This document shows positions 7,346 to 53,163 of a DNA stretch of 64,000 nucleotides, piece by piece (the first letter of the stretch is position 1; every line of letters begins with the position of its first letter). A program made the translations under genes and the position numbers. Under the pieces are notes generated by a model. The model was not told the origin of the DNA. It saw only the letters and a program-made list of their open reading frames with translations, and did not search any database. This DNA comes from Promethearchaeota archaeon (GTDB lineage: Archaea > Asgardarchaeota > Lokiarchaeia > Sigyniarchaeales > SOKP01), in NCBI GenBank assembly GCA_048941015.1, contig JBHLNZ010000002.1:8617-72616 (forward strand), written 5' to 3'.

Positions 7346-7347
7346 GG

Positions 7348-8984: not shown

Positions 8985-9776
8985 CTAGGATTTCAAGAGT
9001 TTGGTTTGAACTCTACCATGTGTTAGTTTGTTTAATTTATCTATTAGTTCCATTTGTAATCCTGCTGGAAGAACCACGACTGAAACCCACGAACCATCTG
9101 ATTGCCATTCTTCTTTTTTGATTTGCGCTAACTGAGCAACGATATTATAACCCTTAGCTGTAAATGCTGAAGGTATTTTTATTGCTAATTCAACTTGTTC
9201 CATTCGAATAGGGATGATTGCTCTCAAACTTTTGACAATATCATCTACTTGTTCTTCGGCACTTCTAATTAAATCGATTTTGACTTTTGCTTCTTCAATT
9301 GCTTTTTCAATTCTCTGATAAGGATGGGGTTTTTTATTTTGAGGGTTAATTGCATTTTTTGAAATAATTGTAATAATTTGCTTTAGTTTCTTTTGTCGTT
9401 CTTCTTCTCTCTGACTTTTAGTCCAGTGAACTTCTCCGTCAAGTAAAATATAAGCAGCTATCGTTCTGCCATCAGTAGTATTGAATACAGCTTCCATATC
9501 ACCATCAGTTGCTTTTTTTCCTCGTCTCAAATCTTCAAAAATAGTAAAGCTTTCAAAAATGAGATCAATAGAGATATTTGGATTATCTAATATTTCTTTA
9601 ACTGTTAAACGAGACTTCTTACTTCCTTCTTTTAACCTTTTATCAATTTCTTCTCGAATTATTTTTTTTGCTTCCCAAGCTTTATCGGGATCTAATAACA
9701 TTTCAAATGTTCTTCCCTCTTTCTCAATACGTCCAATAATATATCCGCCTAAATCAATTCTAGCTCTGTCAATCAT
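8985..9776 (-). CDS. sdo1: SBDS-family ribosome maturation protein (Sdo1)
   Basis: N-terminal FYSH-like GRTFEMLLDPDKAWE. Its position between psmA and rrp4 is conserved. Confidence 0.85.
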   Translation of the reverse strand: MIDRARIDLGGYIIGRIEKEGRTFEMLLDPDKAWEAKKIIREEIDKRLKEGSKKSRLTVKEILDNPNISIDLIFESFTIFEDLRRGKKATDGDMEAVFNTTDGRTIAAYILLDGEVHWTKSQREEERQKKLKQIITIISKNAINPQNKKPHPYQRIEKAIEEAKVKIDLIRSAEEQVDDIVKSLRAIIPIRMEQVELAIKIPSAFTAKGYNIVAQLAQIKKEEWQSDGSWVSVVVLPAGLQMELIDKLNKLTHGRVQTKLLKS

Positions 9777-9896
9777 AAAATGAATTCACAACATTTGATA
9801 TTGAAATTACCGTTTTTTGCCTATTCCTTTTACTGATCTTCGCATTATATGATAATTATTAATGGGGCTGAGCTTGAAGCTTCAAATTTTGAATTT

Positions 9897-10613
9897 TTAT
9901 AATTTGGCTAATAATTCTTCCTTCTCATCTAAACCTAATAATTTGAATTTAGCATCTTCTTTTAATATGAAGGCTACATCACACGTATTTTTACTTAAAT
10001 TATCGCCCATTAATTCTTTTAAAGTTCTTAATGGTAATAACTTTAATTCTTCATCACTAATATCTTCTTTATAATTTTCTTCAAGAAAAGCCCTAGCTTC
10101 TGCTGCACCTGACCCTATAGCAAAGGCTTTATATCCCCATAAAGCTCCACTTGGATCTGTTAAAAATAAAGACGCTTTACCATCTGAATCAATTCCAGCT
10201 ATAAGAAGACTCACTCCAAAAGGTCTAACACCCGCATTTTGAGTAAATAACTGAAGATATTCACAAATATTTAATGTACTGTCTTTTACAGATATTTTCT
10301 CATCATAGTTAAGTAAATTAACTTGCGCTTGAACTCTAGCCCTTTCTACTAACACACGAGCGTCAGCAGTAAGTCCGGCAATAGCCACACCAACATGATC
10401 GTCAATTTTAAAAATTTTCTCTGAACCAATAACTTCTTGAAGTTCAGAGCTCTTTTTTTCGACGGCAAACACAACAGAATTATTATTCCTACATACAATA
10501 GCCGTCGTACCTCTACGAACCGCTTCAATTGCATATTCTACTTGAAAAAGACGCCCTTCTGGTGAAAATTGGGTTATTGCCATGTCATAACCTCTTCCTG
10601 CTTGCTGGAACAT
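9897..10613 (-). CDS. psmA: proteasome subunit alpha
   Basis: YDMAITQFSPEGRLFQVEYA signature. AAGGAG Shine-Dalgarno about 8 nt upstream of the ATG. Confidence 0.92.
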   Translation of the reverse strand: MFQQAGRGYDMAITQFSPEGRLFQVEYAIEAVRRGTTAIVCRNNNSVVFAVEKKSSELQEVIGSEKIFKIDDHVGVAIAGLTADARVLVERARVQAQVNLLNYDEKISVKDSTLNICEYLQLFTQNAGVRPFGVSLLIAGIDSDGKASLFLTDPSGALWGYKAFAIGSGAAEARAFLEENYKEDISDEELKLLPLRTLKELMGDNLSKNTCDVAFILKEDAKFKLLGLDEKEELLAKL

Positions 10614-10777
10614 GATAATTCTCCTTGCGAAATTTTAATTAATATTTATTTGCATTATTTTTTTTTCTGATTAAAAAGTAGTAATAAATAATGAAATATA
10701 TATTTTTTTTTAATATTTCAAAAAGTTCTGAAGATAATATTAGATTATGAAAAGCCTTACATGTTAATATTTTTGCT

Positions 10778-11158
10778 TTAACTCCATGCTACTTTATTTA
10801 TAAAAATAGACCACTCTAAGATAATCATACCTTCGTCTCTGGTATGAGCAATGAGGTAATCTCCCTCTTTAGTAACAGAACCTACAATATTTCCTTTTCC
10901 GCCCACGATATTTTTAGCGGCTAATTGAATTTCATCATTTTTTAAAATCGCGAATCTGCTATCTTGAAATTTAAGAGCAGATTCTTTTTTTTTCCATGCA
11001 TTAAGAATTCCTTTAGCTTCTTCTGAGGTTATTTTGAAATCTTCAGATTTAAATATAATATTCCCTTCACTATTTAACAAAAATACCTCTTCTACCCCTT
11101 CAAATTCCCTAAGTTGCTCAACAAGATGAAAAAATCTCTTCTCTTCCACTATTTTCAC
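10778..11158 (-). CDS. small alpha/beta protein, profilin-like (alternative: roadblock/LC7 fold)
   Basis: 126 aa. The pattern VEEVFLLNSEGNIIFKSEDF ... LKFQDSRFAILKNDEIQLAAKNIVGGKGNIVGSVTKEGDYLIAHT follows the profilin layout: a G.kY.vlr.d-like strand pair followed by a Gly-rich loop. Confidence 0.4.
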   Translation of the reverse strand: MKIVEEKRFFHLVEQLREFEGVEEVFLLNSEGNIIFKSEDFKITSEEAKGILNAWKKKESALKFQDSRFAILKNDEIQLAAKNIVGGKGNIVGSVTKEGDYLIAHTRDEGMIILEWSIFINKVAWS

Positions 11159-38424: not shown

Positions 38425-39432
38425 ATGGAGGATTATAATTTGCCAATATGTTATCATTGCGGGAGAGAGATCTCCGATTTTATTGTCTGTGCTGAGTGTG
38501 GCCAAACTTATTGTTCTATTCATAGTGATCCTGTCGATCATGAATGCAAAATAGTAAAAGAAACTCTTCAACCACAGATAATTTCACCAAATAGACCATT
38601 ATATCAAGAACCTAATATCACTCAATATCAGCACCAATATCCACAATCATACCAAACAAGTTCAGTTGAACGTGGTACAACTGATGGAACGTATACATGG
38701 TATCGTCAAGAACATCAAGTTCCTCCTAATGCTTTTGATCCTGAGTCTGGAATTGAGTTTAAAGGCATACTATTATCTCATAAATCAGAATTATTTCATT
38801 TTTTGATAGGGTGTAGCTTAATTTTCATAATAGGCTTGTTAAATTTCTATGATCCCCAGTTATTTACCCTAGGTTATGGATGGTCTTTATTTATGCTCGC
38901 AGGTTTTTATATGACTGCTTTTCTTTTCCATGAATTAGGGCATCGTCAAACTGCTTTACATTTCGGATTGCAGACAAAATTTAGGCTTCTTACTTTTGGA
39001 ATGTTGATAACCGTTATCGGCTTAATTTCTGGATTAATGAGATTTTTTACTGGTTCTACACTTTTGCCTTCTTTAGCATTACCAGGAGCGGTTGTTGTTC
39101 TTGGTTTGGATAAAATAGATAGAAAAACTGGATTATGCAAAACAGCTGGCCCTTTAGTGAATCTTATATTCGGTACCGGATTGTTTATTATTTCTTTTGT
39201 TATTCCAAAAGCATTGTATCCACTAAATTATTTCTTTGGATTAGCAGCTTATTTAAATTATATGCTGGGCACCTTTAACATGATCCCCATAGGAATTTTA
39301 GATGGACAAAATATATGGAAATGGAATAAAAAAGTCTATATTGCATTAATGCTTTCATTAGCTACTCTGGTTGTTACAACAGGGATAATTATATATACTC
39401 CTTTAGGAATAGATTTTTATTTTCCATTATAA
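38425..39432 (+). CDS. AN1 zinc finger fused to M50/site-2-protease-like intramembrane metalloprotease
   Basis: Exact AN1 spacing C-x2-C-x9-C-x2-C-x4-C-x2-H-x5-H-x-C. HELGH lies in a TM segment. FNMIPIGILDG is the NxxPxxxxDG motif. Confidence 0.7.
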   Translation: MEDYNLPICYHCGREISDFIVCAECGQTYCSIHSDPVDHECKIVKETLQPQIISPNRPLYQEPNITQYQHQYPQSYQTSSVERGTTDGTYTWYRQEHQVPPNAFDPESGIEFKGILLSHKSELFHFLIGCSLIFIIGLLNFYDPQLFTLGYGWSLFMLAGFYMTAFLFHELGHRQTALHFGLQTKFRLLTFGMLITVIGLISGLMRFFTGSTLLPSLALPGAVVVLGLDKIDRKTGLCKTAGPLVNLIFGTGLFIISFVIPKALYPLNYFFGLAAYLNYMLGTFNMIPIGILDGQNIWKWNKKVYIALMLSLATLVVTTGIIIYTPLGIDFYFPL

Positions 39433-39582
39433 TATAATAATAAAATTATTTATTTTCTTATAATTAATAAAAGTTAACAAGATTTATACCTTAAAATATA
39501 TAGATTAAAAAATTTAGTTGCATGTATTTAATGTATCATCAATATCTTATCTTAAGTATAAAATCCACGTTATAGAAAGATT

Positions 39583-40515
39583 ATGACATACTGTGAGCAT
39601 TGTGGGGTAGAAATTGGATATTTACCATTTAAATGTAAATATTGTGGAGGTACATTTTGCAAAAAGCATAGACTTCCCGAAAATCATCAATGTACCTTTG
39701 AATTAAAACACACTCCTGTTGTCCCTTCATCAAGTCGAGAATATTCAGCTAGAACGATTATAGAACCTGTTTCCCAAAAATATTTATCCAAAGGTCCTCG
39801 TGAATTAAAAAAGTATTTAAAAAGACAGGAAAAGCAAAGAAGATACACAATAAGGAGTTATTCAGGAAGAAAGGCAGGAGCAATACGTAATAAGGGAACA
39901 AAAATATTAGTTGGTTTGATTATCATCTTCTCAATTATGGGTCTAATTTTTGAAGGTTTTGGTGTCCCTCAATATATATTTTTAAGTTTAAGTGGGCTAA
40001 TTATTAATTTTACTTTCCACACTATAATTACATCCTTATTTATTGCACAAACAAGTATTTTTTGGATTTTCTTTCTTTTAATTATGATTTATTTTTTGTA
40101 TATAATTGCTAGAAACATTGAATTAACATATGGTACTTCCTTTCTAATCAAGTTATACTTAATTTGTACATTATTATCAGCTTTGTTTTATATATTATTA
40201 AGATTAGCTTTAATTCCTTTCAATTATCCTTTAACCTTTCGATATGATTATGTTGGATTAGCATGGGGGGGTATTTTAGGGTTAATTTCATATTCGATAT
40301 TTCCAGCAATGAATAGAGAAATTACTGCGCTAATGTATTTTTTTCCAATTAGATTGAAAGGAAAAACATTTCTATATATTATTATATTAATTAGACTTAT
40401 ACCAGGTTTATTGTTTGCATTATTTGCTCCATTTTATTTATGGATGTATTTACCGGATTTAGGAGGGATTCTGGGGGCATATATCGTCTTTAAATATCAA
40501 AAAGCAAGCCGTTAA
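39583..40515 (+). CDS. AN1 zinc finger fused to rhomboid-like polytopic membrane domain, apparently lacking catalytic Ser/His
   Basis: Exact AN1 spacing C-x2-C-x10-C-x2-C-x4-C-x2-H-x5-H-x-C. Rhomboid-like [28 protein letters not shown] stands where GxSG is expected. Confidence 0.55.
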
Positions 40516-41349: not shown

Positions 41350-41778
41350 ATGAGCTTAAGACAATATAATACTGAATTAGGACTACTTATTGATAAAATA
41401 GTAAAAGTATATTTAGATCAAGATAAATTCTTTGTAGGTCAATTAAAAGGAGTTTCAGAAGATTCTAACCTTATTATTGTAAATGCGAAGAATGAAAAAA
41501 ATAAAGTATTTCCGAAGATTTTGATAAGGTCTTCTTATTATAATTACGTAACTGTTGAAGAGGAACCATTTCCTATGAAAGCTTTAGCAGATAGAATTGC
41601 AACAATCTTTTCAAAAGGCCATGTAAACTACATTGAGGACCAAAATATTATTTCTATTTTAAATGGTAAAATTATTGTTGATGAAGAAGGAGTAAGAGGA
41701 TCTGGTCCATCTGCTGATAGGGTTAAAAAAATATTCGAACAATTTAGAATGGATTTAGAAAATCCATCAGAAGAATAA
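41350..41778 (+). CDS. Sm-like (LSm) domain protein with C-terminal extension
   Basis: IVKVYLDQDKFFVGQLKGVSEDSNLIIVNA...KILIRSSYYNYVTV follows the Sm1/Sm2 pattern. Confidence 0.45.
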   Translation: MSLRQYNTELGLLIDKIVKVYLDQDKFFVGQLKGVSEDSNLIIVNAKNEKNKVFPKILIRSSYYNYVTVEEEPFPMKALADRIATIFSKGHVNYIEDQNIISILNGKIIVDEEGVRGSGPSADRVKKIFEQFRMDLENPSEE

Positions 41779-41793: not shown

Positions 41794-42312
41794 CTATTTT
41801 TCTTTAAAAATATCTAATAAGTTCTTCAATGTTAAATCATCTATTACATTTTTTAAAACGGCCTTTCCTATTGGTGTGACTTTAATCAATCCTAAATCTT
41901 TCAATTCACGTAAATAGTCCTTTTGAATTAGGAAATTGATATCAGAAGCCCATACTTCAGAAAAAATTTCTTTTAAGTCACTAATTTTTATGTTTTCATC
42001 AATTTCTTTACTTAAAGCTACTATTAAAGCTAAAGTACCATATTGCGAAGGTGTAATGTCATCATCTTTTCCATTAGTGGCTAATACATAGAATTTTTGA
42101 TCTAAAAATTTCGAGGTGACAATTTCAAATCCAATCTTTTTCAAATTCAAGTAAATACTATTAATAATATCTTCGAAGTTAAAATTCTTGGATAAATTTC
42201 TTAGATCTTCTTCTCTTATCATTTTTTGGGGACTTGTTAATATCAATCTTGTTATTTGCTCAACAGTTTCTTCAAAATTAGTATTTTCCATATTTAGCTC
42301 ATTCATTCTCAT
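41794..42312 (-). CDS. operon gene 8: ScpB/MukE-like tandem winged-helix protein (tentative)
   Basis: 172 aa. The two WH-like halves are VEQITRLILTSPQKMIREEDL...GFEIV...KFYVLAT and SQYGTLALIVALSKE...ISDLKEIF...LRELKDLGLIKV. Overlaps gene 7 by 14 nt. Confidence 0.4.
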   Translation of the reverse strand: MRMNELNMENTNFEETVEQITRLILTSPQKMIREEDLRNLSKNFNFEDIINSIYLNLKKIGFEIVTSKFLDQKFYVLATNGKDDDITPSQYGTLALIVALSKEIDENIKISDLKEIFSEVWASDINFLIQKDYLRELKDLGLIKVTPIGKAVLKNVIDDLTLKNLLDIFKEK

Positions 42313-43894
42313 TAATTTTTATTATTTTTAAATTCTTAATTTTATCTTTTAGTTCAATATTAGATAAAATAAAGATTAGATTAAATTGAGTTAGATTATT
42401 TTTAACCTCAAATTGTGGTAATATTTTTTTCATTGTTCTTATTAGAGAGCCTCTTTTATTATAAATAGGGGGAAGAAATAAATTAGAGAATAAAATGTTT
42501 TCACTTCTAATTAATACTTTTATAGAAACATATAAAGTTATAACAAAAAATATTTTTTCTGGAGTTGTTAATTGTTCGAAGTAAATTTGTTCCTTATTAT
42601 TTCTTATAAAAGTCAATAAAATGAAGAAATTCTGTGAATTTTCTTCAATGGTTATCTCAAGATTGACTGATAAATTTATTTCATTTAAAAAGGTTTTCAA
42701 TAAAACTTCTAAATCTTGAATAAGAATTTCAATTTTTCTAAAACTTTCAAGTGAGGTTTTTGTGTTATTTTCATTAAAGCTAATTTTTGTTTTACTTAAT
42801 TCGTTAATTTTCTTTTCTATCTTTTTTAATTCACTTTTTATTGATGATAAATCAAATAGGCATTCAGGATTATACAACTTACTTAACTTTTCAATCTTTT
42901 TTAACTCAATTTCTAATTCTTCAATTTCTTGCACGATAATAGTTGGATTTCTCACTGTTCTTGCTTTCATATCGCTTAAGTCATTCATAATTTTAGCCTC
43001 GGAAGAATTCATTTCTTTTATAACTTCCTGCTGTAAAATTTTCATTTTTTTTTCATCATTTCGTATTGTTTCTAAGATTTTTTGGTAATCCGATTCATAA
43101 GTTAAAAATTGGGGTTCAATTTTCTGATATTTTTCTTTAGAGTTATCCAATTTTGTTTTAGTTTGATTAATCTGAGATTGAACTTCCTTTGCCTGTATTT
43201 GGAGATTTCTTATTCTTTGAGAATAAGACGTGGCTGAGTTTTTACCTGTTTCACTAGATGAGTCAATTTCCATATCACGAGTAATTTTATTAATTTGACT
43301 AAAAAGATTTTTTCTTTTCGTAATTAAATTCTGGATCTGTTGATTATATTCATCAATTACTTTTTTTACTTGATCAAATTGATTACTTATCTTTATAAAA
43401 TCTTGTTCCAAGTATTTTGACTTATTTTTATTAAGCTTTATCGAATCATCTAATTTCTTTAATAAATCTTTTGTTGCTGCTAAATCACTTAACTTTTGAT
43501 ACTTTCTCGAAAGTTCTAATTCCTCTAGCAAAATTTTCTTTGTTTTACTGAGTGTATTGATTTTAAAAATTAAAATTAATTCTTGGACAATTTGATGATA
43601 TTGACTTATTATTTCGAGATTTTTCATACTTGTATTATTAAATTTTTTTAAAAAAGAAAGTAAATTTAAAGAGAGATGAATTTTTTCAAATTGTTCAGGA
43701 AGACTTTGTAATAAATGAATAAAGTCTTCTAAAGGAATTAATTCTATTTTATTTAGAATTTTTAAATATTGTTCATCAAAATCCTCGAGCAATTGATCTT
43801 TTTTGAATTTACCAAGAATTAAAGTATATTTATCTCTAATTTCTATTTCCTTTGATCCAATAGAAAGTATATTTTCATGAAGTTTAATTTTTAT
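42299..43894 (-). CDS. operon gene 7: SMC/Rad50-like coiled-coil protein with degenerate ATPase motifs (start non-canonical; see findings)
   Basis: The ORF is open in frame up to the gene-6 stop. The extension encodes (E)IKIKLHENILSIGSKEIEIRDKYTLILGKFKKDQ, an SMC/Rad50 N-terminal head pattern with a degenerate P-loop. About 350 aa of heptad-rich sequence follow. C-terminal LTTPEKIFFVITLYVS...LFSNLFLPP occupies the LSGGE / Walker B positions. Confidence 0.5.
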   Translation of the reverse strand: MKIKLHENILSIGSKEIEIRDKYTLILGKFKKDQLLEDFDEQYLKILNKIELIPLEDFIHLLQSLPEQFEKIHLSLNLLSFLKKFNNTSMKNLEIISQYHQIVQELILIFKINTLSKTKKILLEELELSRKYQKLSDLAATKDLLKKLDDSIKLNKNKSKYLEQDFIKISNQFDQVKKVIDEYNQQIQNLITKRKNLFSQINKITRDMEIDSSSETGKNSATSYSQRIRNLQIQAKEVQSQINQTKTKLDNSKEKYQKIEPQFLTYESDYQKILETIRNDEKKMKILQQEVIKEMNSSEAKIMNDLSDMKARTVRNPTIIVQEIEELEIELKKIEKLSKLYNPECLFDLSSIKSELKKIEKKINELSKTKISFNENNTKTSLESFRKIEILIQDLEVLLKTFLNEINLSVNLEITIEENSQNFFILLTFIRNNKEQIYFEQLTTPEKIFFVITLYVSIKVLIRSENILFSNLFLPPIYNKRGSLIRTMKKILPQFEVKNNLTQFNLIFILSNIELKDKIKNLKIIKINENE

Positions 43895-43909
43895 TTCACT
43901 TCTACTTTG

Positions 43910-44944
43910 TTAATCAATTTTATCAAAATGATTTTTAAATTCTTTATACTCCTTTTCCTTTTTCTTTTTTCTTTTTCTAATTATTTCTAGTGGATCTGAT
44001 TCATTATCTTTCATTATTAGATATTTTTCTTGAAAAGATTCGGTGAATTGTGATTTAAATTTTTCAATTTTTTCTGTAACTTCATCGCTAAGTTTTATAT
44101 CTTCTGATTTTTTTGTGGATTTAGGCTTTTTTAGTGTTTGCCTTTTTCCTTTCCGTAATTTCCTTTCAAATTCTTTGTGGGATAATTTTAAGTAATCTTC
44201 ATATAATCCCTTTCTTTCTTCTTGTTCTTTTTTTAATTTTTCAAATTCTTCCATTTCTTTGATCTTTTTTAGAATTTCCTTCTTATTTTTAATTTCTTCA
44301 TGACTTGCTTGATTTTCAAGACTTTTTAAAAATTTCTCAAAAGTTAATTCGGGATTTCTATAAAATTTCTCTTTAAATTGATCCTTTAGTAAAGGATCGA
44401 TATTATTTGGTAAATTCCTTAATTGGATTTCAAGTTTCTTTTGAAGAATTTTATTATAAAAAGCATTTAGTTTCATAATGATACTAGAAAAAATTGTGTT
44501 TTGTTTTAAAGAATCAAATAATTCAACCCATTTAACTAAATCAATTGCTAAGGTATAAGATGTCTTATCCAATATTTTAGATATTTTTTTATTTTCTATG
44601 AAAAAAAGACCTATTAGGTGAGTATCTCCTTTTTGTAATTTCAAACTTTTTAATTTATCTTTATAGCTCTCCTTATATCTTTTTATTAAACTATTTCTAA
44701 AATCTAAGAAACTCTTAATATTTTCATTAGTAATTTCAGTGAGATTATTATTAATTTTGTTTAAAGTTTTAAACATATTTTCTAATTCAAGTGAATTCTG
44801 AGTATCTGGAAAAGTCAGATTTAATTTTGAGTTCTTTAATTTTTCTGATATTTCGTTTAATTGATTGATTTTTCCTTGAAGATCATCTATAGATGAGGTT
44901 AGTTCTTTAATTTTTTCTAGATTAAATGATTGAGTCTTTTTCAT
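43910..44944 (-). CDS. operon gene 6: coiled-coil protein with Lys/Glu-rich C-terminal half
   Basis: 344-aa ORF with ATG start, 21 nt downstream of the AAA gene. No recognisable family. Confidence 0.6.
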   Translation of the reverse strand: MKKTQSFNLEKIKELTSSIDDLQGKINQLNEISEKLKNSKLNLTFPDTQNSLELENMFKTLNKINNNLTEITNENIKSFLDFRNSLIKRYKESYKDKLKSLKLQKGDTHLIGLFFIENKKISKILDKTSYTLAIDLVKWVELFDSLKQNTIFSSIIMKLNAFYNKILQKKLEIQLRNLPNNIDPLLKDQFKEKFYRNPELTFEKFLKSLENQASHEEIKNKKEILKKIKEMEEFEKLKKEQEERKGLYEDYLKLSHKEFERKLRKGKRQTLKKPKSTKKSEDIKLSDEVTEKIEKFKSQFTESFQEKYLIMKDNESDPLEIIRKRKKKKEKEYKEFKNHFDKID

Positions 44945-44965
44945 TGTTAAATTGTAATAATATTT

Positions 44966-46084
44966 TTATAATTCTCGTGGTCCTGATAAACTTTTTCTAT
45001 TATTAGGCAATGGAATATTTCTTTCAATTCTTTTTCTAGAATCACTTAAAATATCTTGTCTTTCTACGTGAATAGCAGTTCCTCCAACTAATTTCAGTGA
45101 ATTATAAAATAGATCGTAAGTTAAACGCTCAGTATTAATAGCTTTTAAGATTGCGACTCTAGTTCCTCTTTCTATATCTGATCCTGAATATCCGTATGTT
45201 AACTCTAATAGTCCTTCCATTTTAAATTTCTTATTAAATTCGTTCCATAATAAATTATTATCAAATTCAGAGACTTTATGCCCTATTTTCTTTTCTAATG
45301 AACTTCTAATTTCATCAATTTTCTGATGCTCGTTATTTAAGTTATTGAATATTGAATTATCAACTCCAATTTTAGCACTTTTAACTTTATTAAGGAATAC
45401 CTCAATAATTTGTTTTCTTAAATTATAATCAGGAAATTCAAAACTTAAATGAAATGTAAATCTTCTCCAGATTGCTGAATCAAGTTGATGCTGATGGTTA
45501 GTTGCCCCAAAAATAGCCAATGGAACCCCTTCATAATTAATTCTATCAATTACTTGTAGAAAAGAGATGACAGCACGTTTTATTTCTCCTACCTCATGAA
45601 TATTTGATCTTTCAGAACCAATAGCATCAATCTCATCGAAAAATAATATAAAAGAGCCTCTTTCTTTTGCTATTTCTGCTGATAAATCTACAACACGTCT
45701 AATTTGTTTGATTGTATCTCCTAACAATGGCGATACAAGGCGATCAGTTTCTACAACACAGATAGGAATATTATATTTCTTAGCAAAACCTCTTGTTAGT
45801 GAGGTTTTTCCTGTACCTGGTGGACCATATAAAAGAACAGTTAAACTTGGGTTAAGTTTTGCTCCTTTTAATTGTTCCATAAAATCATCATATTTTTTTA
45901 AAGCCGTAAAGAAATCATCAAGAATCTCTTTTTTAACTTCATTACCTAAGATATCATCAACAGTTTCTCTAATTTCATTTGGAAAATAAACAGCTCCAAA
46001 TTTCCCCATCCGGTCTTTTATTACGTCATCTGTATAGGTGGTTTTTACTTCAACTTCTTTTTTTGAATTACTAATTTTTCTCAA
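44966..46084 (-). CDS. operon gene 5: classical-clade AAA ATPase, single AAA domain, no recognisable N-terminal substrate domain
   Basis: Walker A LLYGPPGTGKTS, Walker B ILFFDEIDAIG, second region of homology GATNHQHQLDSAIWRRF, and lid GYSGSDIE. TTG start. Confidence 0.85.
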   Translation of the reverse strand: MRKISNSKKEVEVKTTYTDDVIKDRMGKFGAVYFPNEIRETVDDILGNEVKKEILDDFFTALKKYDDFMEQLKGAKLNPSLTVLLYGPPGTGKTSLTRGFAKKYNIPICVVETDRLVSPLLGDTIKQIRRVVDLSAEIAKERGSFILFFDEIDAIGSERSNIHEVGEIKRAVISFLQVIDRINYEGVPLAIFGATNHQHQLDSAIWRRFTFHLSFEFPDYNLRKQIIEVFLNKVKSAKIGVDNSIFNNLNNEHQKIDEIRSSLEKKIGHKVSEFDNNLLWNEFNKKFKMEGLLELTYGYSGSDIERGTRVAILKAINTERLTYDLFYNSLKLVGGTAIHVERQDILSDSRKRIERNIPLPNNRKSLSGPREL

Positions 46085-46099
46085 CTCTTTTTTAGTGAT

Positions 46100-47407
46100 T
46101 TATTTATTTTTCCTTTCTTTATCAAATTTTTCACAAAATTCTGCTATCTCAATAATAAAATCCTTAAGGTTATCAATTTGTGAACCTATAAAATTAAAAA
46201 TTTCTTTTCTATACTGAGGCGAATCTCTTATTTTCATTTTATTTAATCCTAAATAATTTGGGAAACAAATAAGCTTCATTAAATAAGGGAGGATTTTCTC
46301 GTTTGTTTGTAAATCTTTGAAAATAGAATAAAAAATATTTTCATCAGATAATTTCCACTTTAAAATTCCCATATAAATTAAAAAAGAGAAATTCATTGAA
46401 ATCCAATTGATTAATTCTTTTGATAAAAAACCTCTTCTCTGAGCAGCAAATGCTAAATAATATAAGATCAAAGTTTCATTACTAAATTGAGGTAATAATC
46501 TTATAGTTCCATCTGATTGTTTACTCTCACGTAAAAAGTTGGATTTCAGAAGCAAATCTACGAAATCTTCTTTAGGTGCTAAGAAAATATTGTCAATAAC
46601 TCGTAAACCTATTCTTTCAGAAAGAGACGTAATTGCTTCTTCTTCTGCGTTAGCAATAGAATCAATAAAAGGTGCAAAGACTTCATTTTTTAATATCATG
46701 GGGATTTCATAGTTCTCTTTTTCAGGAAAATCTCCAAAGTTAGGATCTAAATTGAATAAAGATGTAATATTATTTATTACTTGATAAACTTTGGGCGTCA
46801 TTCCGGGAATTTCAAAGAAGTCAGAACTTTCAATTTTTTCTCGGTAATAAGTATGAGGTTGTAAAATATGTCTTTGACATTCGTAAAAATTTGTTGAATA
46901 GCTTAATAATTTTTGATAAACTAAGTTTAGATTTTGTGCTCGTGGAAACAATTTATCTTCAATATATTTAACTAAAATATATAAATATGTGTTCTTTAAA
47001 TCTGTTTCATCAGGATTAGTTATTCTACGTAATATATTTAAAGCTTCGACTGATTCAAAGAGAAAGTCAATAATGTAATCTTTTATATCTATTATTGGGA
47101 TTTCTTCACGATATTTAACAATAAAATCCTTAATAATCTCGTACACGTTAGATCTATACATCGCAGAAAATTCAGATAAAGCTCTAACCTTTCTAATATT
47201 CCTTTTTTCTTCTTCTTGGCGTATTTTATCTAATACTTCAGTGTCAAGGAGAAGATCAGCATCTAAATCACTTATAATTCTTCTTGTTTCTCTAAGTATA
47301 GGTCGCATATGGCTTATAAAAGTAAGATATCTCGGAAGTATATCAGTCCATTTCTCTCTTTTTCTGCTTGGTTTTACTGTTCTCGAAGATTTTTTCTTAT
47401 AACTCAT
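46100..47407 (-). CDS. operon gene 4: hypothetical protein (435 aa)
   Basis: Long ORF with ATG start and a basic N-terminus, 25 nt from gene 3. No recognisable motif. Confidence 0.6.
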   Translation of the reverse strand: MSYKKKSSRTVKPSRKREKWTDILPRYLTFISHMRPILRETRRIISDLDADLLLDTEVLDKIRQEEEKRNIRKVRALSEFSAMYRSNVYEIIKDFIVKYREEIPIIDIKDYIIDFLFESVEALNILRRITNPDETDLKNTYLYILVKYIEDKLFPRAQNLNLVYQKLLSYSTNFYECQRHILQPHTYYREKIESSDFFEIPGMTPKVYQVINNITSLFNLDPNFGDFPEKENYEIPMILKNEVFAPFIDSIANAEEEAITSLSERIGLRVIDNIFLAPKEDFVDLLLKSNFLRESKQSDGTIRLLPQFSNETLILYYLAFAAQRRGFLSKELINWISMNFSFLIYMGILKWKLSDENIFYSIFKDLQTNEKILPYLMKLICFPNYLGLNKMKIRDSPQYRKEIFNFIGSQIDNLKDFIIEIAEFCEKFDKERKNK

Positions 47408-47432
47408 TAAATTATCACCTTTTTAAAACTTA

Positions 47433-48569
47433 TTATTCTTCATAACCAACTAAAACTTCAGCAAAAATATTTGCAATTTCAATAAAAATTGGGATTTCTA
47501 CTCTGCAGAGATTTCCTAGAATCCACTTGTTGACATCTTTTAATAAAAAGCGGATTTGATTATGTATTTTTTTATTAACTTCTGAATCAATTATTTTTGT
47601 TAACCATAATCCCCCTCCTAGTCTATATGCAATTATTTTAATTAATGGTTCAAATAGTGGTTCTAATACTTCTCTCATCATCCAAGATTTAGGGATTATA
47701 CTCATTTTTTGTTGATCGAAACTAGGATCATTAAGAATTGGGTTAGTTTCATCGACTGTAACTTTAGGCATAAAACTAAGTAATAAAATTAATGCAAATA
47801 TTGCTGAAATCCCATTAACCGTATAAGTGCCCCCAATTTTTTCAAGATCATCCCGATTGACTGCGATGTTAGATAGAAACATACAAATAAAGATATTTCT
47901 ATCAAATTCTTCAGAAACATATGCATATCCTAATTGTTCATCAATAATAAGATATTTTTCTTCAAGGATTTTTATAATCTCATCTGGAAATGTATAAAAA
48001 GTATAAATTCTTTTCTCACTTTTTCTTACATCCTTTTCAATAATCAATTCCTTAGAAATAAGACCAAACATGTCTATTAAATCTTCTAATTGTTTTTTTA
48101 CATAATGCTTAGGTTTATTAGGATCGCCAAACATCGCAAAAAATTGATGGTCTACAATATGAAAGTCGTTCCTTTTACTAAATGCCTCAACCATTCTATC
48201 TATTATTGGCCCTTGGCTACCAGAAGCAATAGCTTTAGCTTTCGAGGTGACAAATCCATTTAATAATTCATTTATAATAAAATCTTGTTCATGAGTTCTT
48301 GATTTTAAGATTTGGGTAAAATTTTTTGCAAAGTCTTTAATTGTAGGAAAGAAGGAATTTTGAATTTTATCATCGATCGATTTTACAAAGAGCTCTCCAT
48401 TATTTTTTGGAAAATGAAGTTTTATATTATTTAGCCTTTGTATTAAAGCTTCTTTAGCTCCAGGTATATTATCTATATCTCTATTTTCAATTTGTTCAAT
48501 TGCTTTATTCAATCCAATTTCAAAATCCTTTAATAATTCTTTCCAGGTTTTGTCGCTAACTTCTGTCAT
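47433..48569 (-). CDS. operon gene 3: hypothetical protein (378 aa)
   Basis: Long ORF with ATG start. One hydrophobic segment (GISAIFALILLLSFMP). No recognisable family. Confidence 0.6.
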   Translation of the reverse strand: MTEVSDKTWKELLKDFEIGLNKAIEQIENRDIDNIPGAKEALIQRLNNIKLHFPKNNGELFVKSIDDKIQNSFFPTIKDFAKNFTQILKSRTHEQDFIINELLNGFVTSKAKAIASGSQGPIIDRMVEAFSKRNDFHIVDHQFFAMFGDPNKPKHYVKKQLEDLIDMFGLISKELIIEKDVRKSEKRIYTFYTFPDEIIKILEEKYLIIDEQLGYAYVSEEFDRNIFICMFLSNIAVNRDDLEKIGGTYTVNGISAIFALILLLSFMPKVTVDETNPILNDPSFDQQKMSIIPKSWMMREVLEPLFEPLIKIIAYRLGGGLWLTKIIDSEVNKKIHNQIRFLLKDVNKWILGNLCRVEIPIFIEIANIFAEVLVGYEE

Positions 48570-48609
48570 AAATTCTCAATCTTCTTAGCCTATAATAATT
48601 AATATCCTA

Positions 48610-49563
48610 TCAATTTAATTCTAACTTTACTTTATTTAATGCGTTTATTAACGGTTTTAGAATTTTTTTATCATAGATATTTGGAGAAGATACTCCCTTT
48701 TGGGCTTTCCATCCCATTTGTGTACCCTCACCCATCTCTCTTTGACCATATTTCAGTATTTTACTGAGATCTCGAATCCACCAATAAAACCTTAACCATC
48801 TTTTATTAGGATTATCTTTTGAATATATAACTACGACCGCTTTCCACTCTCCCATTAACCATTTAATTGTAATCCCACTTACAGGCAAGTAATAATTGAT
48901 TGGAAAGTTACTATGAAAACGTAAATCAAGATCTTCGGCAGAGATATTAAATATTGGTTGATTATATCCTTCTAAAATAACTATCTCTCCACAATGAGGA
49001 CACTCATAGTGTGATTTCATCTTATCCATCTTTTTTTGACATTTTGGGCAAGTTTTATTCTCTATTATTCTATATTTAAAAAGATCTATATTTTTTTCTT
49101 TTTCTTGTTCCTCTTTAGTTTTTGCTTGCTGCTTTCCATACTTTCCCTTCCAATTCCAAATTTCATCAAAAGAGATCTCAATTTGTTCCAATGCTCTTAT
49201 TAAATTTTCAAGAACGTGCTTATCATATATTTTAAGCATTCCAGCATGTTGATAACTTTTCCACCAAGAAAGTCTTACATATTTTTCATCTTTTAAGAAG
49301 GGGCTATGGCATATTAAAACAGCTAATAAACGATTTTCTGTTTTGCTTATTGTAATCCCTTTCTCACATACTTCATATTCTTTATTGAGGCTGACGTTAT
49401 TATGAAAATATTCTCCATCTTGAAAATCCCCTTCTTCAACTTCATCCTTTTCTTTTCTTTTTGAAATTTCATCTTTTTCTTTAATAATTTTTCTACATTG
49501 AGGACATTGAAAAATACCTGCTACTAATGGTTCCATATCAATATTACATAAAGGACATTTCAC
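48610..49563 (-). CDS. operon gene 2: internally duplicated zinc-ribbon protein
   Basis: Two copies of [CxxC...CxxC ribbon + module of about 110 aa]. Module 1 has CPLC..CPQC with VRLSWWKS and KIYDKHVLENLIRAL. Module 2 has CPKC..CPHC with LRFYWWIRD and NIYDKKILKPLINAL. Confidence 0.65.
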   Translation of the reverse strand: MKCPLCNIDMEPLVAGIFQCPQCRKIIKEKDEISKRKEKDEVEEGDFQDGEYFHNNVSLNKEYEVCEKGITISKTENRLLAVLICHSPFLKDEKYVRLSWWKSYQHAGMLKIYDKHVLENLIRALEQIEISFDEIWNWKGKYGKQQAKTKEEQEKEKNIDLFKYRIIENKTCPKCQKKMDKMKSHYECPHCGEIVILEGYNQPIFNISAEDLDLRFHSNFPINYYLPVSGITIKWLMGEWKAVVVIYSKDNPNKRWLRFYWWIRDLSKILKYGQREMGEGTQMGWKAQKGVSSPNIYDKKILKPLINALNKVKLELN

Positions 49564-50678
49564 TCTGAATCATCACTACTGGTAATAAGTAATCTTTCAT
49601 AATCGAGATTTAAAAGTTTTAATTCTTTTCTATTAAATTTCGAAATTTTTTCATTTAATTCTATAACATTACTCCTTAATTCAATAAGAGAGTCTTGAAT
49701 ATTATTTATGATGTTGTCTTCATTAAATGAGACTTTTTCAATAAATTTAAGATAATTATATTTTTTTTCTTTTCCAGAATAAAATCTTTTGATACCTAAT
49801 AATTTAGTTTCAATATTCTCTGATTTAAATCTAAAATCTAAAAGTGATAATAATTTTGAATACCAATGCTTAAAGATTTTATTATTCTTATCAATTTTTT
49901 CAAAATTAAATTTCTCTGGAAGCTCTACTTTTTCATCCTTTAGAGATTTAATAATATCTTTTTGTTCCTTTATTGCTCTAATTATTTTTTTTATAATGGG
50001 CAGATTATTTAATATTGGATCAAAAATTTCAATAAACTTAGCAATCTTGTCTTGAATTTCCTTAAATCTTTGATAAAATCCTTCAATAGTAATTTCAATT
50101 TTTATCGTTTGATAAACATTACCAAATTGATCAAGGATGATGTAAAGATCATCTGATAAAGTATAATCATGTTCTCCAATTTCAGAAATAAGATGATGTA
50201 TTACATTAGATCTTTCACATCTAACATCTTTTAGCTTTGGTAACGCTAAATTGAAATTTCTGCGTGTTAAATTTTTAAATTTTTTGTTAATTATTAAAAA
50301 TAAGGTATCAGCAGGTACAGAAATTATGTCATTTTCAATGGTGATCGTTTCTTCTCCTAATTTAACAATAAAATCTTCATCTTTTTGCTCAAATTCTCTA
50401 ACACTTCTAATATTTTTGAATAAACCCAAATCAATTGTGATTTCAATAAATTCTTGATTCCAAAAGTTCAAAATATTAGTTTTATATATTTCATCTAATT
50501 CTAAAATCTTCTCGTAGGCTTCTATTATTTTTTTATTAGTTAAATTTTTGAATAAGTCGTTTCTTATAACATATAAAAATAAAACGATATATCTCATATC
50601 AATATCATCGAGAATTTTCTCGATTAAGTCTTTATCATATTCCATTACTAAATTCTTATGTTCCAAACCTAAAATCAA
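49560..50678 (-). CDS. operon gene 1: hypothetical protein (372 aa)
   Basis: Long ORF. Its stop overlaps the gene 2 start by 4 nt. TTG at 50678, or ATG 33 nt downstream. Confidence 0.6.
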   Translation of the reverse strand: MILGLEHKNLVMEYDKDLIEKILDDIDMRYIVLFLYVIRNDLFKNLTNKKIIEAYEKILELDEIYKTNILNFWNQEFIEITIDLGLFKNIRSVREFEQKDEDFIVKLGEETITIENDIISVPADTLFLIINKKFKNLTRRNFNLALPKLKDVRCERSNVIHHLISEIGEHDYTLSDDLYIILDQFGNVYQTIKIEITIEGFYQRFKEIQDKIAKFIEIFDPILNNLPIIKKIIRAIKEQKDIIKSLKDEKVELPEKFNFEKIDKNNKIFKHWYSKLLSLLDFRFKSENIETKLLGIKRFYSGKEKKYNYLKFIEKVSFNEDNIINNIQDSLIELRSNVIELNEKISKFNRKELKLLNLDYERLLITSSDDSE

Positions 50679-50856
50679 CTTGTTAAGTAATAATTGATTC
50701 AGCTAAAAAGAGTAATTAAAGAAATTAAGCATTCCTAAAAAATCTTTCGATTTCCTTGAATCTACAACAGAAAAAAGCGAAAATTTTTTAGATTTGATTT
50801 CCTTTTACTTCTTGAATTAGAAATTTAAATTATCTATTTTAAAAAGTTGAATATCA

Positions 50857-51438
50857 ATGGGAAGAAGAAAAAGAAAACAGCAGACTTATAAACGCGTAAA
50901 AAAAGTTCCTAAGATTTTCACTTGCCCAAACTGTGGGGAAAAGTCAGTAAAAGTGGAAAATATAAGGAAATCAGCAATTGCTACTGTTAAATGTGGGCAT
51001 TGCGGTTTAACTAAAGATGTATTGGTTAACTCTATTTCAGAACCAGTGGATGCTTTCGGTGATTTTATTGATATCTATTATGCTGATCAAGAAATTCAGA
51101 GACTAGAAAGACGTATTGCTAAATTAAAAAAGGATAACCAATGGGGGGAGCTTGCTCTTTCCTATTCAATTTTAGCAGATTTATGTAAAGCAAAAGCTGC
51201 TGAGTTATTAGAAGATTCTGAAAATGTTGATGAAGATGAAGTATTAAGATGGAGATCAAAAGCTGAACAGTATAAGAAGCTAGAAAAGGAAGCATTACTA
51301 CAACTAGAAACTCTTGAATTAGAAAAAGGTATTAAAACTGATGAAGAGTCATTATTTTCTGAACATGATGAAAGTGATATAAAAAAAGAACGAAAAATAA
51401 ATGATATCTTTGATGATCCAGGATTTTTAGAATGGTAA
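50857..51438 (+). CDS. elf1: transcription elongation factor Elf1 homolog with about 110-aa acidic coiled-coil C-terminal extension
   Basis: MGRRKRK basic head, then FTCPNCGEKSV...VKCGHCG...ISEPVDAFGDFIDIYY. This matches the Elf1 zinc-ribbon layout (F.C.fC.hekSV...C..CG...l.epvDvy.dwiD). Confidence 0.8.
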   Translation: MGRRKRKQQTYKRVKKVPKIFTCPNCGEKSVKVENIRKSAIATVKCGHCGLTKDVLVNSISEPVDAFGDFIDIYYADQEIQRLERRIAKLKKDNQWGELALSYSILADLCKAKAAELLEDSENVDEDEVLRWRSKAEQYKKLEKEALLQLETLELEKGIKTDEESLFSEHDESDIKKERKINDIFDDPGFLEW

Positions 51439-53163
51439 ATTAGGTTTTAAAATTCTAATTTTTACTTTTGCAGGGATATATTTCCAAATAGGTAATTTTA
51501 CAACAAACTGAAAAAATCGATTCATACTTAATTTATTTTTTAATATAAAATAGCTCCAATTACGAAAAGCTAAGTTATTAAAAAGGTGCATCAAGTTTAC
51601 TCCAAAGATATTGTATCTAGAAGCAAGAAAACTTGCAAAGTATGCTCCAAATCTTTTAGTTTGAGGAATTGATTCTGGATATACAGATTCTGAGAGAGCT
51701 CTATTAAATATTTCATAAATCGAGAATATCGGAATTAGATTATTCAGATTTTCTTCTACTTTTCTACTGTAATTTGGATTATCTAAAGATAAATTAGATA
51801 ACTCATTTAATTTATATATAGCAAATTTGTAGTGTTTTTCTTTAAAGGAAAACCACATTTCTTCCATAGTAACTCTTAGATTTTTTAATATATTAAGTAG
51901 TTTTTTTTCATCAAAAGTAAAATGATATTTTTTTTCATAATATTTAATATATAATAGGAATATTGAATCAGGTATTTGTTTTTCAAAGTGATTAGTGTTA
52001 TACCATTCTGAGAAGAAATCAATATCGTATTCTGTGGGAGTGTGAATTGTATGGGTATTTAAGGGAGTATTCCATATTAATTCAAGTAATTTTTCCATAA
52101 GTTTGATGGTATTAGTAAATTTCTCAATTATAGAATAATTTTGCTGCTTTTTAGGATTTCGAACTGATTTAGCTTTCGAGCGTTTAAATCGAATCTTAAT
52201 TTTTTCGGTTATTTTTAATTGTTTAATAAATTCTTTCTTTTTTTTTTTATAGAGAATGATCTTTTTAATTAATAATTGTTTAAGCTTCATCAATTCTTTA
52301 ATGTAAGAATAAAAGTCCACATTATATTTATTTAAAATTTCATGATAGCTAATTAATGGAATTTCAATATAAGGTCTATGTATTTTTGAATCAATTTTCA
52401 TAGCATGATCTCCAATAGAATAGGAGAAAATAATCTTGTGAAGAACTTCTTTTAAATTCATGAAATTTCCCAATTTTTTTGGATCATTCGTAAAATACCC
52501 ATGCAAAAGGGTATCAATTCCCTTAAACACATTATTCTCATATTCAGAGATAATTACAGATTCAAACTCTCCTGGATGATGTCTTTTGATTTTAAATCTT
52601 TTTCCTACTAAAAAAATTGCTTGATTTGCTCTGTGGCAAACAGTGTGGCTCCATTTTAATATAGGTTCAAGAATCTTACCATAAGTGAGGTTATAACCAT
52701 AAAATTCTGGTCCAAAATATATTGGAAATCCAAATCCACGAGAAGTAGAAAATGTAAACTGAAAAATGTTTCTTGTTTTCTCTCCTTTTAAAAATCCGGG
52801 AAATTTATAGTGTAAAGCAAATCGTGGGTATAATGCATCAAGCCCTAAATTCATCCATGCTTCAAATAGAAGTATGCTATCAGGGAATTTAAAGGAGTCT
52901 ATTTTGCTTAATAAATTGTCACTTAAAGTATTTAATAAAGTGGGGATAGATTGAAGCCAGTTTTTTTCTATCTCAAACTTTTTTGCTCCTTTATTGAATT
53001 TTTTTAATAAAAGTGTCGTAATTTGATTTTGCAAACTAGCTTTTTTAAAATAATAATTATTTAAAACTCTAATAAAAGATGTTATTTCTAATATTTGACG
53101 TTGAAGATCGTGAGTAACTCTGACATATAATGCTTGTTCAGAAAGATTTGAATTATGTAGCAA
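51427..53163 (-). CDS. hypothetical protein (578 aa)
   Basis: Long ORF convergent with elf1 (12-nt overlap). Central Lys-rich linker. No recognisable family. Confidence 0.55.
   Translation of the reverse strand: MLHNSNLSEQALYVRVTHDLQRQILEITSFIRVLNNYYFKKASLQNQITTLLLKKFNKGAKKFEIEKNWLQSIPTLLNTLSDNLLSKIDSFKFPDSILLFEAWMNLGLDALYPRFALHYKFPGFLKGEKTRNIFQFTFSTSRGFGFPIYFGPEFYGYNLTYGKILEPILKWSHTVCHRANQAIFLVGKRFKIKRHHPGEFESVIISEYENNVFKGIDTLLHGYFTNDPKKLGNFMNLKEVLHKIIFSYSIGDHAMKIDSKIHRPYIEIPLISYHEILNKYNVDFYSYIKELMKLKQLLIKKIILYKKKKKEFIKQLKITEKIKIRFKRSKAKSVRNPKKQQNYSIIEKFTNTIKLMEKLLELIWNTPLNTHTIHTPTEYDIDFFSEWYNTNHFEKQIPDSIFLLYIKYYEKKYHFTFDEKKLLNILKNLRVTMEEMWFSFKEKHYKFAIYKLNELSNLSLDNPNYSRKVEENLNNLIPIFSIYEIFNRALSESVYPESIPQTKRFGAYFASFLASRYNIFGVNLMHLFNNLAFRNWSYFILKNKLSMNRFFQFVVKLPIWKYIPAKVKIRILKPNLPF

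Follow-up and report, generated by a model that had tools for sequence, protein, structure and literature searches.

What kind of complex is encoded at a locus where the gene of a protein resembling SMC (structural maintenance of chromosomes) proteins stands in one tight row with the gene of an AAA ATPase and with genes of several orphan proteins? This question is raised by eight genes, called g1 to g8 here, which fill positions 41794-50678 of a 64,000-nucleotide stretch of contig JBHLNZ010000002.1 (assembly GCA_048941015.1) of a Promethearchaeota archaeon. The whole stretch is called the window in what follows, and coordinates are window positions unless a related contig is named. As argued below, the operon is an undescribed variant of the SMC-complex theme, with orphan proteins and an AAA motor, and at its centre stands g7, which by its structure model is an SMC-fold protein without the ATPase motifs. 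In the reading that we prefer, and to which we give an even chance, the locus is a vertically inherited single-locus operon of the Lokiarchaeia (NCBI phylum Promethearchaeota) that would encode a two-module, multi-subunit complex. The eight genes are the following.

g1, 49560-50678, minus strand: 372 amino acids, first gene of the operon, of unknown family.
g2, 48610-49563, minus strand: 317 amino acids, two copies of a CxxC..CxxC zinc ribbon plus an alpha/beta domain with an R-x-x-WW motif.
g3, 47433-48569, minus strand: 378 amino acids, putative paralogue of g4.
g4, 46100-47407, minus strand: 435 amino acids, putative paralogue of g3.
g5, 44966-46084, minus strand: 372 amino acids, single-domain classical AAA ATPase, IetA-like, predicted to be active.
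g6, 43910-44944, minus strand: 344 amino acids, Lys/Glu-rich helical protein (isoelectric point 9.5), possibly a kleisin-like or linker subunit.
g7, 42299-43909, minus strand: about 535 amino acids, predicted SMC fold with a short coiled coil, no hinge and degenerate ATPase motifs.
g8, 41794-42312, minus strand: 172 amino acids, acidic winged-helix protein, candidate kite subunit.

The eight open reading frames (ORFs) are co-directional and tightly spaced, with overlaps of 4 nucleotides between g1 and g2 and of 14 nucleotides between g7 and g8, and with gaps of 40 (g2/g3), 25 (g3/g4), 15 (g4/g5) and 21 nucleotides (g5/g6). The layout that an earlier note on this DNA had described, eight packed minus-strand ORFs divergent from elf1, is confirmed from the ORF coordinates, and the motifs that it had quoted (GPPGTGKT, ILFFDEID, LTTPE and TLILGKFKKDQ) are all present; the gaps of 15-40 nucleotides that it had given hold for the junctions from g2 to g6, but at g6/g7 they require a non-canonical start codon for g7. 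All eight proteins were scanned against four family libraries, Pfam, NCBIfam, PHROG and PADLOC. The scans gave real matches for g5 only, the zinc ribbons of g2 being sub-threshold in Pfam, and they gave no nuclease, toxin or peptidase domain in any of the eight proteins.

We begin with g7. The AlphaFold2 (AF2) model of g7, with a predicted local distance difference test score (pLDDT) of 84.1, has strands near the N-terminus (residues 13-33), then two long helices that run antiparallel (77-215 and 226-312), and at the C-terminal end an alpha/beta lobe (413-531); this is the layout of SMC and Rad50 proteins. With Foldseek, the model has 53 matches in the PDB at E <= 0.001; the top 19 all belong to the SMC superfamily, and a few Tc-toxin and dynein chains are found at lower rank. 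These matches include Rad50 (E 1e-9), the Pyrococcus Smc head with joint (E 2.8e-6), MukB, Smc5/6, LmuB and JetC, with probabilities of 0.98-1.0, and also YydD, cohesin and the Geobacillus Smc head. The head, coiled coil and head arrangement that the earlier note had proposed for g7 is thus supported by both the model and the structure search. In the family alignment g7 is without the Walker A motif GxxGxGK[ST], the signature LSGG[QE] and the Walker B motif hhhhDE, and at the corresponding positions it has GKFKK, LTTPEK and FSN, respectively, which are conserved across the family. The degenerate P-loop, the LTTPE signature and the absence of a Walker B DE, which had been read from the single sequence, are therefore seen as family-conserved replacements. 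The model, taken together with the alignment, shows g7 to be an SMC fold without ATPase motifs.

Moreover, the tip of the coiled coil in the model is a 10-residue loop of low confidence (216-225), and the family has no SMC_hinge match and no conserved CxxC or cysteine column, its members having 0-3 cysteines; neither an SMC hinge nor a zinc hook of the Rad50 type is thus present. On the sequence level g7 has no Pfam SMC_N match, its NCBIfam SMC matches (E ~1e-6) are confined to the coiled coil, its only PADLOC match is JetC, again over the coiled coil (E 1e-6), and its profile gives only coiled-coil noise against the PDB sequences. We found 62 homologues of g7, which are 505-551 amino acids long among those that cover the N-terminus; the taxon-named ones are all from Asgard lineages, apart from one labelled 'archaeon' and one labelled 'marine sediment metagenome'.

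The start of g7 deserves a remark. The only canonical start is the TTG at 43792, which gives 497 amino acids, and the conserved N-terminus is encoded in 43793-43909. The segment TLILGKFKKDQ lies upstream of this TTG, within 39 codons that contain no in-frame ATG, GTG or TTG. Read backwards from the TTG, the frame of g7 stays open as far as the TAA of g6 (43910-43912), g6 and g7 sharing one frame with a single TAA between them, and the ATA at 43894 is a candidate non-canonical start. In most other genomes g7 starts at a GTG 13 nucleotides past the g6 stop; in the window, the usual GTG (AGTGAA context) is shifted by one base, and the frame that it opens is closed by a stop two codons on. The same missing start of g7 is seen in L004 (~9380-9530 of that contig), the closest relative at species level. 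Because L004 shows the same, the missing canonical start is, judging by the two sequences, probably a lineage feature (a non-canonical start, re-initiation or read-through) and not an assembly error.

Where did such a protein come from? Distant relatives of g4 (19-47% identity) were traced to contigs L077-L085. One of these, L082, with 47% identity in g4, has the Lokiarchaeial architecture. Six others (L077, L078, L080, L081, L084 and L085) have orthologues of g1, sometimes of g2, of g3, of g4 and of the AAA gene, and then an SMC-type gene. The distant AAA orthologues score 204-325 bits, orthologues of g3 are present in 9/9 of the distant operons examined (L077-L085), those of g2 in L077, L080 and L085 (34-59 bits), and the hidden Markov model (HMM) of g1 gives weak matches to the first gene in L078 (36 bits), L077 (20 bits) and L085 (20 bits). 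The SMC-type gene follows the AAA gene in all six distant loci that have sequence there, despite wholly different neighbouring genes.

These distant SMC-type proteins are of full length, with 1034-1087 amino acids, except in L084 and L085, where the contig end leaves the N-terminal head only. The L081 protein exceeds the Pfam cut-offs for both SMC_N (59 bits) and SMC_hinge (24.5 bits), and the L080 protein matches, among PDB sequences, the Pyrococcus Smc head (54 bits) and Smc5 over its full length (32 bits), with no Rad50 or MukB match in that search. Among the NCBIfam families the long SMCs score best against SMC_prok_A, with 92-166 bits against a cut-off of 729, and in PADLOC a distant SMC matches LmuB with 65 bits. 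An intact P-loop, GxNGxGKS, is present in five of the six, and the three of L077, L080 and L081, where the C-terminus is seen, also have S[ST]GQK and AIDEFD. The stretch from LTTPEK to FSN in g7 is collinear with, and identically spaced to, the stretch from SSGQK to IDE in the long SMC of L080. The long SMC of L078 (12876-15980, 1034 amino acids) is of full length and degenerate, with GKYEVDKK at Walker A, DDLHK at the signature and TLDLSN at Walker B; this is an intermediate stage, or else the ATPase was lost independently here. Downstream of the long SMC in L080 and L081, and partly in L077 and L078, there are three genes, namely X, Y and an orthologue of g8. Partner X (~307 amino acids) is a tandem winged-helix protein (HTH_45/HTH_27) with likeness to LmuC (3e-9). 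Partner Y (~300-324 amino acids) has one weak, unconfirmed Nse4_C match (E 0.0056), a homologue search with Y giving 3 proteins, none with a Pfam domain. In L078, the SMC is followed by proteins of 182 and 172 amino acids in place of the usual partners. In L084, a second SMC_N/AAA_23 protein (997 amino acids, intact motifs) is encoded with two small genes at 885-3878 on the minus strand, divergent from the g1-g5-SMC operon.

The last gene (164-172 amino acids) of the distant operons with an SMC is an orthologue of g8 (94.5% by hhalign, E 7.8e-8). With the distant orthologues included, a search of PDB sequences with the g8 family profile ranks MAGE-G1 first (E 0.027) and NSMCE3/Nse3 second (E 0.043), Nse3 being the kite subunit of Smc5/6. 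The earlier description of g8 as a ScpB- or MukE-type protein stands insofar as a winged-helix partner is concerned, but its nearest PDB sequences, at marginal significance, are Nse3 and MAGE rather than ScpB or MukE. For g6, no recurrent Pfam family was seen among 18 diverse members, and hhalign gave no match to the partners X and Y, to the 182-residue protein of L078 or to the long SMCs. Its lysine-rich C-terminal tail is conserved.

The whole arrangement is conserved among related genomes. The locus set comes from a scan with the g7 family over one genome per GTDB species, which gave 73 loci, and the window proteins were compared by tblastn over 75 loci. The loci are nearly all from metagenome-assembled genomes of Promethearchaeota (Lokiarchaeia); for a few, the submitters gave the label Hod-, Hermod-, Thor- or Odinarchaeota. 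In 52/75 loci the full set of eight genes is collinear on a single strand, and 50 of these 52 complete loci are flanked by Elf1 and Lsm. Of the 23 partial loci, 16 are truncated by the end of the contig. Since the same order is kept in 52 of the 75 loci and most partial loci are contig-cut, the arrangement as it appears in these assemblies is far beyond chance; the conservation of gene order, which the earlier note had named as a check, is thus borne out. Judging by the loci found, the operon is restricted to the Lokiarchaeia and a few relatives. The median identities to the window are 67% for g1, 74% for g2, 79% for g3, 81% for g4 and 74% for g5, then 46% for g6, 40% for g7 and 64% for g8, as compared with flank medians of 83% for Lsm and 74% for Elf1. 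The identities range over 59-79% for g1 (53 loci), 71-84% for g3 (59 loci), 72-88% for g4 (65 loci; the most conserved gene of the operon), 28-64% for g6 (69 loci) and 53-81% for g8 (73 loci). Median intergenic gaps across the loci are 2-45 nucleotides, with a median of 44.5 nucleotides for g5-g6 in the Lokiarchaeial form.

We then come to the genes upstream of g6. The protein g5 matches Pfam AAA with E 1.1e-24 (87.8 bits against a cut-off of 21.2), its best PDB sequences are VAT, p97 and Cdc48, and 48/48 orthologues have the Walker A, Walker B and sensor-1 motifs and the RRF arginines, which bears out its earlier assignment as a classical AAA ATPase. The sole motif variation, ILFFDE or VLFFDE at Walker B and one ATN-to-STN at sensor-1, is conservative in both cases. 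From these motifs g5 is predicted to be catalytically intact. Its pore loop, SPLLG, is invariant and is hydrophobic rather than aromatic, and its second region of homology, LDSAIWRRF, has an RRF pattern that we take to be the one of Vps4 and the meiotic clade. There is little in g5 besides the AAA core. The IetA profile match begins at residue 43 and that of Pfam AAA at residue 83; the earlier figure of about 40 residues before the fold therefore becomes 40-80, depending on where the fold start is placed.

For g1, g3, g4 and g6, no family was found in Pfam, NCBIfam, PHROG or PADLOC, and the profiles of g1, g2, g3, g4 and g7 gave nothing significant among PDB sequences; the earlier statement that genes 1, 3, 4 and 6, about 1530 amino acids, match nothing holds, with a total of 1529 amino acids and no family in the four libraries. 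The two halves of g2 are homologous (BLASTP E 1e-9 over 154 columns), as expected for the duplicated zinc-ribbon module that had been seen in it, and all eight ribbon cysteines are invariant in 30 orthologues. By hhalign (98.0%, E 2.5e-13, 283 columns, residues 12-333 of g3 to 91-400 of g4), g3 and g4 are paralogues, a relationship that is new here and is drawn from profile comparison. The AF2 model of g4, made with an alignment that includes the distant relatives, has a pLDDT of 86.4 and a predicted template modelling score of 0.87, and it consists of a helical N-bundle, a winged-helix-like middle and a helical C-part; with Foldseek it finds nothing at E <= 0.001 in PDB or BFVD. An exhaustive HMMER search with g4 against 1.84 billion representatives matched just 34 clusters (50% identity), and because of this the g4 family is very narrow.

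It is noted that in g3 the residues 252-268, NGISAIFALILLLSFMP, also delimited as 254-272, are hydrophobic and invariant (KD19 hydropathy 2.13), that a hydrophobic stretch is present at about an equal position in most distant g3 orthologues, and that no segment above the usual transmembrane threshold is present in the operon proteins other than g3. A membrane anchor in g3 was considered and rejected, as the stretch lies in the span aligned with g4, where the hydrophobic helix of g4 (330-352) is buried in the model. By its alignment position the stretch is probably a core helix.

The surroundings of the operon are as follows.

Presumed promoter region, 50679-50856, no strand: 178-nucleotide divergent intergenic stretch from g1 to elf1.
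Elf1, 50857-51438, plus strand: Pfam 2.4e-19, divergent from g1.
Lsm, 41350-41778, plus strand: convergent with g8.

The stretch 50679-50856 is AT-rich with TATA-like stretches and is the sole gap of more than 40 nucleotides on the upstream side of the operon. The GC content across the window is ~0.23-0.33, the operon being about equal to its flanks, and among the marks of a mobile island looked for at the locus, no repeats, RNA genes or GC shift were found. The flanks are housekeeping genes: Elf1, Lsm, a CobW/HypB-type GTPase, zf-AN1 proteins and an archaeal SAM synthetase. At 38425-40515 on the plus strand there are two adjoining genes, each with an N-terminal AN1-type zinc finger, the first also with a Peptidase_M50 segment, and this pair belongs to a conserved neighbourhood with the CobW-type GTPase and Lsm. 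Past elf1, an ORF of 578 amino acids (51427-53163, minus strand) has no Pfam match and is 49-74% identical in 29 related loci.

We propose that the complex has two modules. Module A (g1-g5) would consist of g1, g2 with its two zinc ribbons, the paralogues g3 and g4, and g5 as the intact AAA ATPase. Module B (g6-g8) would be a reduced remnant of an SMC-kleisin-kite type complex, with g7 as a hinge-less mini-SMC having its ATP site replaced by other conserved residues, with g8 as a kite-like partner and with g6 as a charged helical subunit that may fill the kleisin or linker role. Rare, distant relatives carry module A together with a full-length SMC, winged-helix partners and the g8 orthologue, and the form found in the Lokiarchaeia is therefore derived by reduction from such an SMC complex with its AAA module. 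In the simplest view, the ancestor would have been an SMC-kleisin-kite type operon already joined to the g1-g5 module. Within the operon family the SMC would then have lost its ATPase, and in the Lokiarchaeia the SMC would also have been shortened and g6 would have replaced the other partners; that the loss of ATPase occurred within this operon family is indicated because the L078 SMC is of full length yet degenerate.

By analogy with other SMC complexes, we infer that the complex acts on DNA or chromatin. The g6-g7-g8 part may be what has become of an SMC ring, a passive scaffold that binds or bridges DNA, and a hexamer of g5, the only intact nucleoside triphosphatase, would together with the g1-g4 adaptors assemble, remodel or extract this scaffold by pulling on a subunit, with the g3/g4 pair being likely a heterodimeric adaptor and the lysine-rich tail of g6 being a plausible handle for g5. 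Because the position between housekeeping genes is fixed and the conservation of g1-g5 is high, a core cellular role is favoured, and what the operon encodes is probably a housekeeping complex associated with DNA, a mobile defence island being the less probable alternative. A further-reaching version of the proposal, which we hold to be tentative and rather doubtful, is that a pre-Lokiarchaeial machine, an AAA unfoldase with the paralogous g3/g4 adaptors and two more orphan proteins, would have served to load, remodel or remove a ring of the Smc5/6 kind whose kite resembled MAGE/Nse3, the ATPase of the ring later becoming dispensable and decaying in the Lokiarchaeia. The decay would then amount to a natural experiment in which an external motor drives an SMC-derived scaffold.

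Several points weigh against the two-module proposal. The status as an operon rests on spacing and synteny. When g7 is compared with the long SMCs by hhalign, the probability is 48.8% in the arm, and in the pieces of the head it is 0.6% and 5.3%, which is not significant; the HMM and hhalign alignments, though non-significant, are topologically correct, and since the sequence link alone is non-significant the kinship of g7 with the long SMCs rests on fold and position. The matches of g8 to Nse3 and MAGE are statistically marginal (E ~0.03), and for g6 as a kleisin no support comes from sequence, hhalign and Pfam both giving null results. The nearest named family of g5 is the anti-phage IetA (PADLOC 1.8e-58, 197 bits), with 178 bits and 3.4e-52 against NCBIfam IteA, for which the equivalog cut-off is 510, and g5 scores 195 bits against phrog_3757 and only ~85 bits against PAN or Cdc48. 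In addition, the operon is not universal within the group, the exceptions being L066, L003, L072, L020, L031 and L057. In L066 (CP070805.1, a complete chromosome, 3004-11125), only a truncated g7 and g8 are present beside Lsm; in L003 and L072, a Dpd-like DNA-modification island replaces g1-g5 beside g6-g8 in the examined flank; L020 and L031 are without g1; and L057 is without recognisable g1-g3 despite the contig continuing upstream.

Some details of these exceptional loci may be recorded. The g7 of L066 is an ORF of 360 amino acids that corresponds to the C-terminal two thirds, g1-g6 are not in the flank, and a RagA/Gtr1-like GTPase and a canonical SMC (1483 amino acids, SMC_prok_A 620 bits) lie just upstream on the opposite strand. 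The islands in L072 (2053-9080) and L003 (~1-9065) lie directly upstream of, and co-directional with, g6-g8, with HerA on the other strand; their members are a DpdB-like protein (99 bits), a TGT-like one, HerA and a PAPS reductase that resembles BrxP/SspD (173 bits). This lineage has the most divergent g7, and its PAPS reductase is one with 4Fe-4S. A DndBCDE-like reading of the two loci was dropped in favour of a separate Dpd-like island with these members.

The serious rival to our proposal is an SMC-type antiviral or antiplasmid defence, acting in the manner of Lamassu, Wadjet or Smc5/6 restriction and fixed in the Lokiarchaeial chromosome, in which the SMC-like part would sense and the AAA protein with g1-g4 would be the effector or regulator. 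Eukaryotic Smc5/6 restricts viral and extrachromosomal DNA. What makes this rival serious is the far higher score of g5 against IetA and phrog_3757 than against PAN or Cdc48, the presence of LmuB and JetC among the Foldseek matches of g7, the likeness of a distant SMC to LmuB (65 bits) and of partner X to LmuC (3e-9), the fast evolution of g6 and g7, and the lineage losses, with one lineage having its Dpd-like island exactly at the place of g1-g5 and with L066 having lost most of the operon. We nevertheless regard it as unlikely. The operon has a fixed place between housekeeping genes in at least 50 species-level genomes, and g1-g5 are 59-88% identical and conserved like Lsm, which is the opposite of patchy, horizontally moved defence islands. 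In the eight proteins there is no IetS protease, JetD/MksG nuclease, LmuA effector, nuclease or toxin domain, and an ATPase-dead SMC would be incapable of the ATP-driven DNA scanning that Wadjet and Lamassu need; moreover, the long SMCs match SMC proper, and not Rad50 or MukB, among PDB sequences. Of the functions that the earlier note had left open, the DNA-handling one in its SMC-derived form is thus favoured and that of mobile defence is weakened.

It is less likely still that the proteins form a scaffold with no relation to DNA, that is, a cytoskeletal, membrane-remodelling or protein-assembly structure in which the AAA protein disassembles g6/g7 like Vps4 or NSF. Such a role would fit with the loss of every ATP-binding motif and of the hinge in g7, with the LDSAIWRRF of g5, which resembles the RRF pattern that we take to be that of Vps4 and the meiotic clade, with the invariant hydrophobic stretch of g3 and with the charged, coiled-coil-like g6. 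However, a hinged SMC and winged-helix partners, which are DNA-handling components, make up the ancestry; only g3 reaches the usual transmembrane threshold, and its stretch probably matches the buried g4 helix rather than a membrane anchor; and the operon contains no ESCRT-III, actin or tubulin-like partner. It is because of this ancestry and of the alignment to the buried helix that we consider a cytoskeletal or membrane role the less likely one. The remaining explanation, that g1-g5 and g6-g8 are unrelated units which are merely adjacent, we consider very unlikely. It could account for L003 and L072, which keep g6-g8 beside Lsm with no g1-g5 in the examined flank, and for the very different rates at which the two parts evolve, but the order of module A followed by an SMC-type gene in 6/6 distant loci with different surroundings speaks against it, and the median g5-g6 gap of 44.5 nucleotides leaves no room for a separate control region.

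SMC complexes are universal ATP-driven organisers of chromosomes, and the Asgard archaea are the closest known relatives of eukaryotes. In our preferred reading, that of a two-module complex, an SMC-derived protein without ATP site or hinge is retained, with conserved replacement residues, across the Lokiarchaeia, and this mini-SMC would be coupled to an intact AAA ATPase and to four proteins without known relatives, one of which (g4) is by its model fold-novel relative to the PDB. If the parts cooperate, the operon would be a naturally occurring example of an SMC scaffold that an external motor drives or regulates, it would provide a graded series from a live long SMC through a dead long SMC to a dead mini-SMC that can be tested biochemically, and it would offer new candidate SMC regulators in a lineage thought to be ancestral to eukaryotic Smc5/6 and MAGE. 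If the proposal of a pre-Lokiarchaeial machine is true, that machine would be an archaeal counterpart or forerunner of eukaryotic SMC accessory regulators. If the function is instead a fixed defence, the operon would represent an unusual domestication of an SMC-type immune module.

Finally, we compare the operon with known systems. In the literature on Asgard SMC, kleisin and kite proteins and on IetA, Lamassu and Wadjet, we found no description of it, and the family, PDB and literature searches assign its genes to no characterised system, in agreement with the earlier remark that no described system combines such parts. With IetAS it shares IetA as the nearest named family of g5, but the score is far under the equivalog cut-off, the match covers the AAA core only, there is no IetS subtilisin-like protease and the partners are others. 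Lamassu and Wadjet are alike in having short SMC-like proteins and partner subunits in one operon, and LmuB and JetC are found by Foldseek with g7. They differ in that the ATP site of g7 is lost and in that the locus is at a conserved housekeeping position and not patchy. In PADLOC the window proteins have no significant LmuA, LmuB or LmuC match, the likeness to Lamassu by LmuB and LmuC scores being limited to the SMC and X of the distant operons, and as regards Wadjet/MksBEFG there is no match to JetA, JetB or the Toprim protein JetD/MksG, JetC being matched only via the coiled coil of g7. With Smc-ScpAB the operon shares the fold of g7, which resembles the Smc heads of Pyrococcus and Geobacillus, and the size of g8, which is that of a tandem-winged-helix partner; by contrast, there is no ScpA or ScpB profile match, the ATPase of g7 is predicted to be dead, and in at least one relative (L066) a canonical SMC is present separately.

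The closest comparison is with the archaeal Smc5/6-related operons. TACK and Asgard archaea are reported to carry two, and some Asgard archaea three, SMC-kleisin-kite operons, one of which is Smc5/6-related with Nse4-like and Nse1/3-like partners, and an Asgard-only clade of Nse3-like kites was reported (bioRxiv 10.1101/2024.01.07.573240; PMC8665677). No AAA ATPase or other gene of the present operon is mentioned by van Hooff et al. (bioRxiv 10.1101/2024.01.07.573240) or by Yoshinaga and Inagaki (PMC8665677). Like those operons, the present one has an SMC-fold gene beside small winged-helix partners in an Asgard lineage; the first PDB hits of the g8 profile are Nse3 and MAGE, and a distant SMC with a hinge aligns over its full length to Smc5, the likeness of the long SMCs to Smc5/6 resting on pairwise scores. 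The difference is that the SMC-like protein of the window, with ~535 amino acids, has neither hinge nor ATPase motifs and is accompanied by no recognisable kleisin, and that the window adds to the SMC-type genes five conserved genes, including that of an AAA ATPase, in the same operon.

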